A stretch of 64,000 bases of DNA from a virus, in IMG/VR virus record IMGVR_UViG_3300032770_000017, positions 1 to 64,000 of that record. One strand, given 5' to 3'. Shown piece after piece: positions 27,067 to 42,473 of the stretch; positions within the stretch are counted from its first letter, which is position 1, and each line of letters begins with the position of its first letter. The position numbers were made by a program, and so were the translations under genes. Under the pieces are notes generated by a model, which worked only from the letters and a program-made list of their open reading frames with translations, ran no database searches and was not told the origin of the DNA.

Positions 27067-27306
27067 ATGTCAGCGACCGAGTTCCCGAACCCAGTTGTCG
27101 TGGACGTGGCCTACGCGCCAGCGGACGGGTACATCCCCGTCTACCACGCGGCGACCAACACCTGGCGGGCGTCCTCACCGACCGGGCTGACCGGTGCCAC
27201 CGGCGCGACTGGCGCAACGGGGGCAACGGGCCATGCGGGTGCAACGGGAGCGACAGGCCCTACCGGAGCGACGGGCGCCACCGGGCCCACCGGCGCCACC
27301 GGCTGA
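27067..27306 (+). CDS. Mini collagen-like protein A (Gly-X-Thr)
   Basis: AGGAGG RBS; ~38-aa head plus about 13 GXT/GXA triplets. Confidence 0.85.
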
Positions 27307-27318
27307 TAGGGCGATCCC

Positions 27319-27549
27319 ATGGGCGAATATCCCGACCCAGTCCTCATCGACCCGGCCTATCCGCCGTCGGATGGCTACATCCCGGCCTGGCACGCCGCGA
27401 CAGGCACCTGGCGTGCCATCGCGCCGACCGGTCCGGCTGGTGGAGCGACCGGCACCACCGGTGCGACCGCTGGCACGGGAGCGACGGGCCACACGGGCGC
27501 CACGGGCCCTACCGGTCACGTCGGCCCGACGGGCGCCACTGGGGCCTAG
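27319..27549 (+). CDS. Mini collagen-like protein B (paralog of A)
   Basis: Shared head P.PV..D.AY.P.DGYIP..HAAT.TWRA..PTG plus GXT repeats. Confidence 0.85.
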
Positions 27550-27574
27550 CCCTTCAGCGGCGTAGCCTGAGGCT

Positions 27575-28240
27575 GTGCGCCTTGTCTACGTCTCCCTCGT
27601 CGCTGACGCCGAGCGGTACGCGTCGGTGGCGGGGGCGCACATCCCCGAGCACGCCACCGCCGTCACGGTTGAAGGCGCGGCCTCTGCGGCGAGCGGGCTG
27701 AACCCGGTCCTCGAACGCTACGCGGCCGACCCATCGGTGGACGGCCTGGTGGTGCTGCACGAGGACGTGATCATCCGTGATCCCGAGTTCGAGCCGATGA
27801 TCGGAGCGCACCTGCGCGAGCAACGGGTGGGCCTGATCGGCGTGATCGGCGCCGTGCGGCCACCCGGGCTCAACTGGTGGGACGCCGCGGTCAAGCGGGG
27901 CGCGGTAGACGAGACACGAGGACGCATTGACTTCGGCTGGGGCGACGCCGATGTGGACGTGTGCGACGGGCTGCTCCACGTCATCGGCCGTCGAGCCCTT
28001 GACGCCGGCATCCGTTACGACGAGTGCTACGACGCCTTCCACGGCTACGACTTGGACCTGTGCCTGCAGGTGAGGGCGGCCGGGCTGCGGGTGGTCGTGG
28101 CGCCAGTGTGGGTGGACCACCGCACCCGTGGCGGCTATGGCGACGTGGACGCCTATCTGCGCGCCGATGCCCGGTTCCGCGCCAAGTGGTCAGGAACGGT
28201 GCGCGGCGACGCCGATGTTGGCGAGCAGGTGCGGCGGTAG
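27575..28240 (+). CDS. GT-A glycosyltransferase (Glyco_tranf_2_5-like)
   Basis: LHEDV, GLIGVIG, VDVCDGLL, FHGYDLDLCLQ. Confidence 0.8.
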   Translation: MRLVYVSLVADAERYASVAGAHIPEHATAVTVEGAASAASGLNPVLERYAADPSVDGLVVLHEDVIIRDPEFEPMIGAHLREQRVGLIGVIGAVRPPGLNWWDAAVKRGAVDETRGRIDFGWGDADVDVCDGLLHVIGRRALDAGIRYDECYDAFHGYDLDLCLQVRAAGLRVVVAPVWVDHRTRGGYGDVDAYLRADARFRAKWSGTVRGDADVGEQVRR

Positions 28241-28906
28241 CTCCTCGGAGATGGCGCTCAACGCGTCGATCAGCCGCGGGTCCCATTCGAGCATCATCGA
28301 ATTCGGCACGACCTTGAGGAAGTAGCCGAAGCATCGCCCAAGCCGGAACCCCGCGGTCCATAGATCGGCATGTAGCTCGTCGCGCGTGTAGACCCGCCGA
28401 TGGCCTACGAGCCTGTCCCGGTCCGAGAGTGTGTCGAGACGTGGCTGCAAGCCCATCCTCACCGCCAGGCGCCGGTGCAGTGATTCGGCGTTGGGGACAA
28501 CGACCACGATGGTCCCGTATGGCTTCAGCCACGAACGCACGGCCTGCAGCATCGTGATCGGGTGCTCGACGTGCTCCAGCACATGCAGGCAGAGCACGCC
28601 GTCATAGGGCTCGGCCGGGGTGAAGTCCTCGAACAGGGAGTGGTGCACGACGAGCCCGGGATGGCGCTCGGCCGCCTCAGCGCACAGCGCCTCCGACCCT
28701 TCGACCACCTCCACGCTGAGGCCTCGCTCGATCAACGCGGCAGTGACCGCTCCGGTGCCGTAGCCCATCTCCAGCACCCGCTCTGCTGGCCTGAGGGCGT
28801 CGAGCACCGTGGGCAGGCTGGCGAGCTGCATGGACTCCTCAATAGCGATGTCCGGCACTGACGTGTTGAGGTAGTACCCACGGGCGAAGTCGTCGAGATC
28901 GGTCAT
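28190..28906 (-). CDS. Class I SAM-dependent methyltransferase
   Basis: VLEMGYGTG, HVLEHV, VVVPNAESLHR; ATG 28906 overlaps upstream stop. Confidence 0.88.
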   Translation of the reverse strand: MTDLDDFARGYYLNTSVPDIAIEESMQLASLPTVLDALRPAERVLEMGYGTGAVTAALIERGLSVEVVEGSEALCAEAAERHPGLVVHHSLFEDFTPAEPYDGVLCLHVLEHVEHPITMLQAVRSWLKPYGTIVVVVPNAESLHRRLAVRMGLQPRLDTLSDRDRLVGHRRVYTRDELHADLWTAGFRLGRCFGYFLKVVPNSMMLEWDPRLIDALSAISEELPPHLLANIGVAAHRS

Positions 28907-40090: not shown

Positions 40091-40440
40091 TGCCCGCCAC
40101 CTATGCCATCGGCCAAGTGCTGCCTAATGGGGCCCGCGTCACGACCGACGAGGTCACGACTGCGCCCGACGGTTCCACGGTCGAGCACATCGTCGCCCAC
40201 TACCCGAACGGCGCATGGGACGAGGAGACGATCTTCACGCCCGGCCCGGGGACGCCCGAGGCGAACCGGCAGATGACTCATCAGCGCGTCCGTGACGGGC
40301 TCATTGACCATGCCACCTATCTCGCCGATCCGGCGACGACGTTCGAGGCCCTCGTTGCGCAGGTGGAGGCGTTGACCCGCCAGGTCAACCGACTGGCCCG
40401 CATCGTCCTGAACGAGCACGACACCACCGCAGGTACCTGA
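40090..40440 (+). CDS. Hypothetical fibre-associated protein
   Basis: TGATG coupling; C-terminal coiled coil. Confidence 0.6.
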   Translation: MPATYAIGQVLPNGARVTTDEVTTAPDGSTVEHIVAHYPNGAWDEETIFTPGPGTPEANRQMTHQRVRDGLIDHATYLADPATTFEALVAQVEALTRQVNRLARIVLNEHDTTAGT

Positions 40441-40441
40441 G

Positions 40442-41950
40442 ATGGATCCGCGCGGCGTTGTCGGCCACGTCCTCCCGCAGCGCCAGGGTCCCGACCGGTT
40501 CGCGCTCAAGTATGCGCACGAATACCTGAGCACGCCACTGCCGACGCCGACCTATCCAATCGACATCACCAGCGGCCTAACCGCGTGGGGTGGGTTCGGC
40601 AACAGCGGAGAGATGCCACCGCAGTACCCCAACCCTGTCGGGGATTGCGTTGATGCGGCGAAGTACCACCTCTATATGTCAACGGCACTTGGCGCCGGGC
40701 AACCGCTGCCGGCCCTCACGACGCTGCAATGCATCACCGACTACTTCGCTCAGACAGGCGGCAAGGACACGGGCGTGCGGATCTCCGACTCGCTCCTGTG
40801 GTCCTACAACCGCGGCGACATCCTCGCCTTTGCCCCCGTTGATTACACGAACCTCGCCGTGCGTGACGGGCTGTGCCAAGCGGGCTGGGGGATCATCCTC
40901 GGCATGTGGCTGCCCACGGCCAACAACGGCCAAGGCGGCGGCCATTGCGTGGTGCTCGCCAAGGTCGTCGCGCAAGGGGGCGACGAGTTCTTCATCACCT
41001 GGGGCGACGTGGAGTCCTTCAAGGACGAGACGTACCTGTACACCATCGACGAGGCGTGGCTCGTCGTGACCCACGAGGAGCAGCTCGCCGCTTTTGAACC
41101 GGCGTTGTTGGCCGATATCACCGCCTTGGGAGGCACTGGCGGGCCGCCTCCACCGCCCCCGGTCTATCCGACCCCTATCGCAGGAGAGACCGTGCTCATT
41201 CAGACTGTCGGGACCCCTTTCGGTGGCACCCCGACCGCGGTTCAACAGGCGATCAATGTGCAGAACACCGGGGCCACCCTGCTCGCCTTCGTCTGCGGCA
41301 GCACCGCCACTTCGCCGATGGCATCGTCGGTCTCTGGAGCTGGGGCAACTTGGACGCGCCGGGGCTCGCGTTTTGACCACCCGGGCACCGTTGAGGTGTG
41401 GGAGGGGACAGGCGCGGCGGCTGGGGTGCAGACGGTTACGGCTTCGCTCGTCGGTCCGATCGCCAACTGCGCGTTCATCGTGCAGGAATGGACCGGGACC
41501 GGGTCGACCGCGCCGGACTCTGTTACCTACGGCTCTTCCTCCGCTCCTCCATCGGTGATCGTCAGCCCGCAGGCTGGGGATGGAGTGTCGGCGTTCATCT
41601 TCTGCGGCAATGGCATCATCAATGTTGCCGCACCCTTCACGGGCGAGATCACGCTCCCGATGGTGAACGTCTCATCCTGCGTTGCACCGGTTACTGGCGC
41701 ACTAGCCGCGGCATGGGTGACAGGGGGAGGGGCGTGGAACGGGCTCGCGATCGCCCTGCCAGCCGGATCGGCTCCTCCTCCTCCTCCTCCATCACCACTG
41801 CCACCGCCTTCGCCGACCTCGTTCCTGGACCACATCAAGAGCGAACTGCAAGCGCTTGACGCCACATTGCAGGCGATCATCGCTGAGATCACCGCGCAGG
41901 ACGCCGCCACGTTCGGTGGATCGTCCTACGGCGGCGGCGCGACGGGATGA
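40442..41950 (+). CDS. Papain-like Cys/His peptidase-fold domain fused to beta-rich virion-type domain
   Basis: GDCVDAA, GGHCV, ITWG; paralog of 58484..59599. Confidence 0.6.
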   Translation: MDPRGVVGHVLPQRQGPDRFALKYAHEYLSTPLPTPTYPIDITSGLTAWGGFGNSGEMPPQYPNPVGDCVDAAKYHLYMSTALGAGQPLPALTTLQCITDYFAQTGGKDTGVRISDSLLWSYNRGDILAFAPVDYTNLAVRDGLCQAGWGIILGMWLPTANNGQGGGHCVVLAKVVAQGGDEFFITWGDVESFKDETYLYTIDEAWLVVTHEEQLAAFEPALLADITALGGTGGPPPPPPVYPTPIAGETVLIQTVGTPFGGTPTAVQQAINVQNTGATLLAFVCGSTATSPMASSVSGAGATWTRRGSRFDHPGTVEVWEGTGAAAGVQTVTASLVGPIANCAFIVQEWTGTGSTAPDSVTYGSSSAPPSVIVSPQAGDGVSAFIFCGNGIINVAAPFTGEITLPMVNVSSCVAPVTGALAAAWVTGGGAWNGLAIALPAGSAPPPPPPSPLPPPSPTSFLDHIKSELQALDATLQAIIAEITAQDAATFGGSSYGGGATG

Positions 41951-41951
41951 G

Positions 41952-42473
41952 ATGCGCGTCCTCGTTCCCTTCACTGCGCGCCATATAGAGACGATCGCGG
42001 GCGCGCCCGCCAACGCTGAGTGGGTGGATGTCTCCCGATCCTCCACCGCGTACTGGGAGACGTTGTGCGAGTTCTGGAATAGTGGCGATGACCTGCTGAT
42101 CATTGAGCACGATGTGGTCTGTCGTCCTGATGTAATTGAGCAACTGGAGATGTGCCCTGAGCCGTGGTGCGCGTTCGGCTACAGCGATATGTGCCATCCC
42201 GAATGCATGGAGGCATGGGCCAACGCGTTTGGCTGCACCCGGTTCCGTAAGGAATTGATGGCCGCCGCGCCCGACGCGGTGTCCTCTATCCCCGAGGGCT
42301 ACGGCCGGGACTGGCACAACCTGTGCGACTACGTCTCGGGCATGCCTTGGCTGAACCCGGAGATGCGGCCCCAATGCCTGCGGGCGCGCGGCTTCTGGCA
42401 CCACTGGCATTACCCGGCGGTCAGGCACCACAAGATGAGCCTTGAAAGCTACAAAGCCCTGATCGGCGGCTAG
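41952..42473 (+). CDS. Small GT-A-like glycosyltransferase
   Basis: LLIIEHDV, FGCTRF, terminal H.H. Confidence 0.55.
   Translation: MRVLVPFTARHIETIAGAPANAEWVDVSRSSTAYWETLCEFWNSGDDLLIIEHDVVCRPDVIEQLEMCPEPWCAFGYSDMCHPECMEAWANAFGCTRFRKELMAAAPDAVSSIPEGYGRDWHNLCDYVSGMPWLNPEMRPQCLRARGFWHHWHYPAVRHHKMSLESYKALIGG

Follow-up and report, generated by a model that had tools for sequence, protein, structure and literature searches.

Flagellin glycosylation islands, such as those of Pseudomonas syringae and Pseudomonas aeruginosa with their viosamine pathway and that of Listeria with GmaR, encode glycosyltransferases (GTs) that O-glycosylate Ser/Thr residues of the filament protein. This flagellin-type glycosylation takes place in the cytoplasm, and virion assembly is likewise cytoplasmic. 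In Bacillus anthracis, the Gly-X-Thr filaments of BclA are O-glycosylated on Thr with anthrose, a methylated, N-acylated amino-dideoxy sugar. Among tailed phages, experimental proof of virion glycosylation is to our knowledge limited to a few mycobacteriophages, in which this modification influences recognition by antibodies, and we know of no amino-sugar biosynthesis cassette in those phages. Here we analyzed an island of sugar-pathway, GT and collagen-like fibre genes in an uncultured phage represented by IMG/VR record IMGVR_UViG_3300032770_000017 (80,207 bp, rated complete by CheckV, ~67% GC); the window, as we call the stretch of DNA under study, is the first 64 kb of this record (positions 1 to 64,000). 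The island occupies a 16.3-kb insert that separates the tail tube gene from the head-tail adaptor gene (Table 1). We think it likely that the island is a phage-borne, fully soluble cytoplasmic system for protein O-glycosylation of the phage's own fibres. As judged from the genes alone, the most likely acceptors would be the Gly-X-Thr collagen-like bristles and fibres whose genes surround it.

Virus-encoded glycosylation of the virion is already known in mycobacteriophages (as reported via PMC12363180) and in giant viruses (PMC9614988). The mycobacteriophages Che8, Corndog and Myrna glycosylate the C-termini of their capsid and tail-tube proteins with GTs of their own (Freeman 2023, as summarised in PMC12363180 and PMC12619734). 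The island resembles that system as one of an actinobacteriophage whose GT genes are placed within or beside the structural operon, although glycosylation of the own virion is shown there and proposed here; it differs in its six-enzyme sugar pathway and in its likely acceptors, the collagen-like fibres. Mimivirus encodes its own viosamine, bacillosamine and rhamnose pathways and carries the glycans on its surface fibrils (reviewed in PMC9614988). It shares with the island a virus-encoded pathway for a rare amino-dideoxy sugar, GTs and collagen-like genes, whereas it infects a eukaryotic host, is not a tailed phage, and makes UDP-linked 4-amino sugars where we infer a dTDP-linked 3-amino chemistry. 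The FdtA/FdtB (Aneurinibacillus S-layer glycan) and QdtA/QdtB enzymes form dTDP-3-amino-3,6-dideoxyhexoses (PMC2943079), and like them the phage has an adjacent 3,4-ketoisomerase and pyridoxal phosphate (PLP)-dependent aminotransferase of the same families and in the same gene order. Unlike FdtC and QdtC, which are left-handed beta-helix proteins, the phage acyltransferase belongs to the FemAB family; the phage also adds two methyltransferases and a mutase-fold protein, and its FdtA lacks the second His. New in the present analysis are the homology to flagellin-linked cassettes, the fused GT and the comparison of the insertion slot among related phages.

We called genes by the G+C content of third codon positions (GC3) and annotated them with Pfam, NCBIfam and PHROGs. 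A preliminary description, made from the DNA letters, had proposed a gene content and order for the region between tail tube and adaptor, and the annotation agreed with it: an FdtA/QdtA isomerase and a DegT aminotransferase, one enzyme with three GT domains and tetratricopeptide repeats (TPR) (by Pfam, profile and fold evidence), two paralogous methyltransferases and four Gly-X-Thr collagen genes are all present. RmlA and RmlB, said to be absent from the window, are absent from the whole 80,207-bp genome. Other labels needed adjustment. Of the two small GT-A genes, the one at 27575 has a Pfam match, and the one at 41952 has a structural match in the ESM Atlas and no sequence family. The gene of the 'NTase-fold protein' exists, its fold being suggested by ESM Atlas neighbours, and that of the 'oxidoreductase' encodes a protein with the fold of UDP-galactopyranose mutase (UGM) and protoporphyrinogen oxidase. 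The 'GNAT' is instead a FemAB-family / Acetyltransf_6 enzyme.

The amino-sugar cassette and its bacterial counterparts

A genome scan with the family of the mutase-fold protein identified 36 loci (L049-L084), 25 of them with full flanks and all in Actinomycetota (Thermoleophilia, with Miltoncostaeaceae, Conexibacter and Paraconexibacter included; Microthrix; Geodermatophilus; Nocardioides). With the phage proteins as tblastn queries, most of these loci showed a colinear cassette, FdtA-DegT-FemAB-MT2-mutase-MT1, at 40-66% identity, often followed by a GT that matched D1 and part of D2 of the large phage GT described below. The methyltransferase MT1 was 53-61% identical to its cassette counterpart in 35 of the 36 loci and its paralogue MT2 was 40-50% identical to the second cassette methyltransferase, while the FemAB-family protein was 36-53% identical to a cassette gene in 32 of the 36, the alignment starting at residue ~45-50; the true start of this phage gene is probably near 32220. 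Bacterial homologues of the small GT-A protein (41% and 34% identical) adjoin the cassette in loci L055 and L068. In 15 of the 25 fully flanked loci, and in no others, flagellin homologues were found no more than 10 kb from the cassette; these 15 include the loci of the cultured Geodermatophilus nigrescens and of a Conexibacter. The cassette thus resembles a flagellin-glycosylation island. In locus L050 (cassette region 6743-15015), Pfam placed FlgK, FlgL, flagellin and FliW on one side of the cassette and flagellin with further GTs on the other (FliC in two copies).

The bacterial cassette is accordingly a mobile nucleotide-sugar module, which in many lineages is part of an apparent flagellin glycosylation island. 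The preliminary description had counted occurrence of the cluster apart from collagen and structural genes as evidence against a virion coat, and in bacteria the cassette does stand with flagellin genes or alone; it is thus a general sugar or protein-glycosylation module and not a collagen-specific one. Like flagellin islands, the phage island pairs GTs with a nucleotide-sugar pathway that is soluble and cytoplasmic and would lead to a modified amino-dideoxyhexose, and its cassette is colinear with, and 40-66% identical to, the flagellin-linked ones. It differs from them in lying among virion fibre genes, in the fusion of its GT to an extra GmaR/SunS-type domain, and in the lack of a flagellin gene, which was sought in the phage and not found. 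Judged by this comparison, the phage island is a derivative of a flagellin glycosylation island and not a member of the class. In a tree of the mutase-fold family, the phage copy and two metagenome proteins formed a separate clade. The six-gene amino-sugar cassette is conserved and apparently undescribed: our literature search found no paper describing it, and the actinobacterial islands are apparently uncharacterised. The cassette points to a conserved amino-sugar module in Thermoleophilia, Microthrix-like and other Actinomycetota, whose mutase-fold enzyme may make the furanose form of a 3-amino-3,6-dideoxyhexose. Its frequent position beside flagellin genes supports, through homology, a role of the phage cassette in protein O-glycosylation.

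The same homology could mean that the island acts on a host protein, most plausibly flagellin, the phage supplying a copy of the host's flagellin-glycosylation genes and so altering or maintaining the flagellar glycan during infection; if flagella are the receptor, altering them might block superinfection or stop progeny from sticking. The cassette and the D1 and D2 domains are homologous to genes that lie between flagellin genes in many Actinomycetota, and GmaR, the best profile relative of D3, is a flagellin glycosyltransferase. Nevertheless, we regard this alternative as unlikely. Finished filaments cannot be re-glycosylated from the cytoplasm, and the phage is probably lytic, since a search of the genome for tyrosine and serine recombinases (integrase, resolvase) found none, which also makes lysogenic conversion unlikely. 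The island is placed among fibre genes and not among early genes, and nothing points to flagella as the receptor. Moreover, one related phage (G004, see below) keeps a GT and a methyltransferase beside a mini-collagen without having the sugar cassette. We therefore continue to favour the phage's own fibres as the target.

Comparison with solved structures helped to assign several of the enzymes. The phage FdtA matched FdtA, QdtA and WlaR proteins in the PDB (1e-30 to 1e-21). The DegT enzyme matched 2oga (2e-115), QdtB (2.8e-95) and WbpE (1e-80), with ArnB and perosamine synthases far lower (~1e-49 to 5e-52); because its best solved relatives act at C-3, we predict the same regiochemistry for the phage enzyme. 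The FemAB-family protein matched no PDB sequence, and solved structures gave no substrate assignment for the two methyltransferases. The 434-residue mutase-fold protein, which has ~290 homologues, had no Pfam match itself, although NAD_binding_8 was found in 32 of 54 aligned family members. Its AlphaFold (AF2) model, built from the family alignment, had a pLDDT of 95.9 and showed the three-domain UGM flavoenzyme fold, matching UGM 4dsh with a VIA Z of 27.7 (root-mean-square deviation 3.3 over 386 residues); protoporphyrinogen oxidase came next (Z 24.3). PF03275 was sought in the protein and its family without a match, and the dinucleotide motif was atypical, reading G-G/x-S/T-x-A-A in the family and G-D-T-V-A-A in the phage as against the canonical GxGxxG. 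A function as a pyranose-furanose mutase is put forward as a lead and not as a result.

Glycosyltransferases of the island

All the GT genes are located within the stretch from tail tube to head-tail adaptor, in the structural region. The largest is a 1057-residue enzyme of four parts, a GT-B domain (D1), a GT2 domain (D2), a GT2_4 domain (D3) and a TPR region. A D1 profile (A3, which includes bacterial homologues) matched PimB' (9e-11) and WaaG, while D2, a GT2 domain by Pfam, had weak matches to polypeptide GalNAc-transferases. The D3+TPR part matched phrog_13126 (1.2e-29), and its profile (A6, ten relatives) had GmaR (2.1e-19), SunS (1.6e-16) and ThuS (2.8e-12) as the best solved proteins apart from TPR proteins. 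When the AF2 model of this part (pLDDT 92.2) was searched with Foldseek, the top six matches were ThuS and SunS (7e-16 to 1e-13 over ~380 columns) and further matches dropped to ~1e-6. D3+TPR thus combines a GT-A domain followed by TPR with profile similarity to GmaR, SunS and ThuS. GmaR is a flagellin O-GlcNAc transferase and SunS and ThuS are glycocin S-glycosyltransferases, so that all three best relatives act on proteins or peptides. By profile and model, D3+TPR is of this protein/peptide-glycosylating type, and transfer to a protein acceptor is predicted for it. It shares the GT-A plus TPR architecture with SunS and ThuS, although the targets of those two are Cys residues (for ThuS also Ser) in small secreted peptides, whereas D3+TPR forms the end of a three-GT fusion and reads DAE instead of DAD. 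D3 keeps the DTGSxD and HEY motifs. The 1057-residue GT is a new fusion and not a fragment, and D3+TPR is without a counterpart in the bacterial cassettes.

The 173-residue GT-A-like protein has no match in Pfam, NCBIfam or PHROGs and no counterpart in the bacterial cassettes. Its nearest clusters in the ESM Atlas were 95-100% viral, and it had TM scores of 0.70 to a GT2 cluster and 0.66 to MobA-like NTP transferases. A tblastn search of isolated phages with this protein and with the 221-residue GT-A protein gave no match.

We found no transmembrane-like segment in any island protein, and Pfam annotation of the island showed no lipid-carrier (polyprenyl-phosphate) GT, flippase, polymerase or ABC exporter. 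The absence of membrane and export machinery, the cytoplasmic site, the GmaR/SunS-type domain and the position among fibre genes together favour the phage's own proteins as the target. Two other kinds of substrate have to be weighed against the same facts. Phage GTs often glycosylate DNA (as cited in PMC12619734), and the enzymes might hypermodify the phage DNA with sugar. Such a role is extremely improbable, as the island belongs to the structural module and not to that of replication or nucleotide metabolism, has no base-modifying enzyme next to it, and contains GTs whose identified relatives act on proteins or peptides.

The second kind is the host envelope. For pelagimyophages, the GT and sugar genes clustered in their hypervariable fibre region have been read as serving O-chain modification (PMC7029224), and PHROGs classes the GT families as 'moron/AMG'. 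Among IMG/VR contigs, L016 and L040 have adjacent FdtA and DegT genes and others have DegT genes with GT2_4-TPR genes. The preliminary description had regarded so complete a pathway as unmatched in a tailed phage; in view of L016, L040 and the large sugar and GT cluster of L029, this was too strong. That cluster (L029:5508-20022; unrelated IMG/VR viral contig, 35% GC) consists of two GT47-like genes, a GT32-like gene, a methyltransferase, two DegT genes, a UDP-glucose-dehydrogenase-like gene and a GT2_4-TPR gene, followed by a gene for a 1412-residue unassigned protein. The island could accordingly be a set of auxiliary metabolic genes that alter an envelope polysaccharide or glycolipid, the usual reading for marine myophages. 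We consider this very unlikely here, given the lack of a membrane protein and of the carrier and export functions named above, the TPR-bearing GT domain of the protein/peptide-glycosylating type and the missing integrase.

Other searches for the island genes in viruses were largely negative. A megablast comparison of the island with isolated phages found nothing similar, and the sole FdtA match among isolated phages was gp50 of Streptomyces phage Zuko, in a non-structural context with no aminotransferase nearby. IMG/VR scans with the 1057-residue GT, FdtA and the mutase-fold protein found no relatives, no other IMG/VR contig had a mutase-fold gene, and a JGI metagenome scan with the mutase-fold protein also found none. 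No paper linking FdtA to phage virions was found among those searched.

The mechanism that we propose for glycosylation of the fibres follows, in the order of its steps, the established FdtA/FdtB chemistry (PMC2943079). Host RmlA and RmlB would supply dTDP-4-keto-6-deoxy-D-glucose, FdtA would shift its keto group to C-3, the DegT enzyme would aminate C-3 and the FemAB-family enzyme would N-acylate the amine. The two methyltransferases would then methylate the sugar, and ring contraction to a furanose may be the task of the mutase-fold protein. Transfer would be carried out by the small GT-A protein, the 1057-residue enzyme and perhaps the 173-residue GT-A-like protein, with the TPR of the GmaR/SunS-like domain holding the protein substrate, so that the fibres would be decorated in the host cytoplasm before or during assembly.

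The tube-adaptor slot in related phages

Searches with the capsid and tube proteins identified four relatives of the phage, namely G001 (a fragment), G002 (61% complete), G003 (complete) and G004 (complete, with terminal repeats, 78 kb). The gap between tube and adaptor measured 1.1 kb in G003, ~1.1 kb in G001, 3.5 kb in G004, 5.6 kb in G002 and 16.3 kb in the window phage. In all five phages it holds fibre-type genes whose products start with a ~36-residue head, (E)FPNPP...G(Q/Y)...W...(T/S)P, and differ in their distal parts, which are Gly-rich, beta-propeller-like or collagen. Such a head is probably a shared module for docking to the virion, to which different distal parts can be joined. 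It is shared by seven otherwise dissimilar proteins of four phages (window 27067-27186 and 27319-27438; L090:10990-11109; L008:10928-11047; L012:15463-15582, 17339-17458 and 17673-17792, the L012 copies on the minus strand).

The slot of G004 contains, in order, a mini-collagen, a protein with two GT2 domains, a Methyltransf_23 enzyme, a Gp80-like fibre and the adaptor. The second GT domain is 41% identical to D2; the N-terminal one aligned with D3 at an E-value of 0.12, and we do not claim it as a D3 homologue. By contrast, G001, G002 and G003 had no collagen run of at least seven triplets and no GT2. Co-occurrence of collagen and GT genes in related contigs, which the preliminary description had proposed to check, is thus found in two of the five phages, with joint absence in the other three, among them the closest relative by capsid identity (G001, 63%). 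That both are together in the same slot of G004 and both absent in the three others supports fibres as the target.

The four collagens of the window phage total 122 G-X-Y triplets, with Thr at Y in 89, and their uninterrupted runs are 7 to 24 triplets long; as a group they are collagen-like proteins by PF01391. Residues 3-78 of mini-collagen 1 match the N-terminus of phrog_3449 'tail collar protein', and residues 116-354 of collagen 4 match phrog_5073 'tail fiber protein' (7.7e-27), a match that reaches past the repeats. The N-terminal domain of collagen 3 (37651-37977) corresponds, at 54% identity, to a ~127-residue protein of G004 (L090:2133-2435) that has no collagen; it ends exactly where the collagen repeats of the window phage start, so the repeats of collagen 3 look like an added extension. 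The likeness to BclA, a spore-surface protein with a C1q-like head, is an analogy confined to the repeats.

Taken together, the proposal of the preliminary description that the phage makes a rare amino sugar from host dTDP-4-keto-6-deoxyglucose and transfers it to virion proteins is now better supported, through the cassette homology, the type of D3+TPR, the slot co-occurrence and the lack of lipid-carrier or export machinery, and we regard it as partly supported; its 'exosporium-like coat' stands as an analogy only. A more specific history is possible, if tentative: a lytic actinophage may have captured a whole flagellin-glycosylation cassette from the lineage of its host and re-aimed it by fusion of a GmaR/SunS-type TPR domain. 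Its bristles and fibres would then carry the rare methylated N-acylated 3-amino-3,6-dideoxy sugar of the host flagella, possibly as a furanose, and a virus would be dressing its particle in the glycan of a host appendage. If the fibres are indeed the acceptors, the phage would join a rare sugar of its own making to collagen-like proteins by means of a pathway with a traceable origin in a bacterial cassette common in flagellar clusters. The island also offers a small set of enzymes, all soluble, with which protein O-glycosylation could be tested on (Gly-Ala/Pro-Thr)n peptides, and it bears on the effect of phage surface glycans on adsorption, stability and immune recognition.

Several observations weigh against glycosylation of the fibres. 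The phage FdtA has Asn at the position of the second active-site His and so lacks the His-x-His pair, of which the first His is kept; the motif (window 32410-32430, residues ~57-63) reads R-A-G-H-A-N, compared with R-G-G/N-H-A-H in all 27 bacterial cassette homologues and both viral homologues. In FdtA the active-site pair is His49/His51. The best-scoring solved FdtA entry, 2pak, also has H-A-N here and is the engineered H51N mutant, a form that reportedly keeps only reduced activity. By this alignment the phage enzyme carries naturally the His-to-Asn change that was engineered in the PDB entry, and the first step of the pathway may be weakened. In D3, D-A-E replaces the D-A-D that is invariant in the ten aligned relatives. 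Paraconexibacter has the six sugar genes in isolation, with neither flagellin nor GT among their unrelated neighbours, so the tie of the cassette to protein glycosylation is no more than an association. Phages without GTs commonly have Gly-X-Thr collagen-like (minor) tail proteins, and with five related genomes or fragments the collagen-GT co-occurrence is only suggestive. Part of the sugar genes are on the strand opposite to the structural genes. Finally, the stretch is present only in the DNA run of its source wetland metagenome, and no RNA run containing it is listed.

Some of these points would fit a cassette that is a recent passenger, decaying or partly functional, gained with fibre genes in a recombination-prone slot and without a present role. 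The slot is very variable in size, the Asn of FdtA is found in the phage copy only, D3 has its DAE, and no other IMG/VR contig carries the mutase-fold gene. However, the nine enzyme genes of the island are all intact and full length, their GC3 (0.78-0.89) is at the genome level and the big GT is a new fusion. In addition, identity to the bacterial homologues is only 40-66%, suggesting that the genes were maintained through a long divergence. A passenger without function is therefore quite unlikely in our view, and glycosylation of the phage's own fibres is the explanation that we prefer.

Gene inventory and minor features

The genes of the slot are collected in Table 1. They run on the plus strand in the left and right parts of the island and on the minus strand in the middle, in a divergent layout.

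Table 1. Genes of the tube-adaptor slot and its borders, with positions in the window (SAM, S-adenosylmethionine; aa, amino acids)
Feature	Position	Strand	Basis of assignment and remarks
Tail tube, left slot border	26110..27057	+	weak phrog_792, E 4.9e-6; syntenic, 40-55% identical in G001-G004
Mini-collagen 1, 79 aa	27067..27306	+	39-aa N-terminal head, then 13 G-X-Y triplets (12 with Thr at Y); PF01391, 6.7e-7
Mini-collagen 2, 76 aa	27319..27549	+	paralogue of mini-collagen 1, head module 63% identical; PF01391 1.1e-3, below threshold
Small GT-A, 221 aa	27575..28240	+	PF13712, 8.7e-14
SAM methyltransferase MT1 (Methyltransf_23)	28190..28906	-	Pfam; start inferred from ATGA overlap with upstream gene
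UGM / protoporphyrinogen-oxidase fold protein, 434 aa	28903..30207	-	AF2 model, Foldseek, VIA
SAM methyltransferase MT2 (Methyltransf_23), MT1 paralogue	30204..30893	-	Pfam
Possible nucleotidyltransferase-fold protein, 138 aa	30890..31306	-	ESM Atlas neighbours only: phage clusters auto-named nucleotidyl transferase, score 0.96
FemAB-family / Acetyltransf_6 acyltransferase	31294..32352	-	TIGR03019, 7.7e-10; PF13480 and PF04339 ~1e-3
FdtA/QdtA-type dTDP-6-deoxy-hexose 3,4-ketoisomerase (cupin)	32242..32664	+	PF05523, 1.5e-51; 174 bits vs cut-off 23
DegT-family PLP sugar aminotransferase	32661..33746	+	PF01041, 6.5e-106; 355 bits
Four-part enzyme, 1057 aa	33743..36916	+	D1 GT-B (~1-480), D2 GT2 (~487-690), D3 GT2_4 (~700-880), TPR (~880-1040)
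Ser/Thr-rich (29%) virion-type protein, 219 aa	36983..37642	+	phrog_644, 6e-12; phrog_20658 'head decoration', 9e-6
Collagen 3, 344 aa	37651..38685	+	109-aa N-terminal domain, then 71 G-X-Y triplets; PF01391, 7.2e-19
Collagen 4, ~466 aa, start uncertain	~38690..40090	+	N-terminal domain, 31 G-X-Y triplets, 247-aa C-terminal domain; PF01391, 9.4e-13
Two unassigned genes, 116 aa and 502 aa	40090..41950	+	no Pfam or PHROG match
GT-A-like protein of phage-specific family, 173 aa	41952..42473	+	ESM Atlas only
One more unassigned gene	right of 173-aa gene, before adaptor	+	
Head-tail adaptor, right slot border	43360..44208	+	phrog_783, E 5.7e-36; 46-55% identical in relatives

The 138-residue protein has no match in Pfam, NCBIfam or PHROGs and no counterpart in the bacterial cassette loci. 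In G004 the gene at the place matching that of the 219-residue Ser/Thr-rich protein, just upstream of the adaptor, is the Gp80-like fibre (PF23140), and homology between the two was not detected. The N-terminal Cys/His motifs of the 502-residue protein (40442-41950) recall a papain-like peptidase; the protein has two poly-proline linkers and no family match. A scan for promoters and terminators was uninformative, with no promoter-like site and three terminator-like sites against 5.7 expected.

Outside the slot, the region between the capsid gene and the next structural gene (23666-24718) has overlapping open reading frames on both strands with no family match. The major capsid protein is ~30% identical to those of Gordonia, Arthrobacter and Microbacterium phages, a distant kinship. 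A ~70-residue Ser/Thr-rich module is present in the tube (26400-26620) and in the preceding structural protein (24715-26097). We considered it as a GT acceptor and rejected it, as it also occurs in G002 and G003, both without GTs, indicating that the module is not tied to glycosylation genes.

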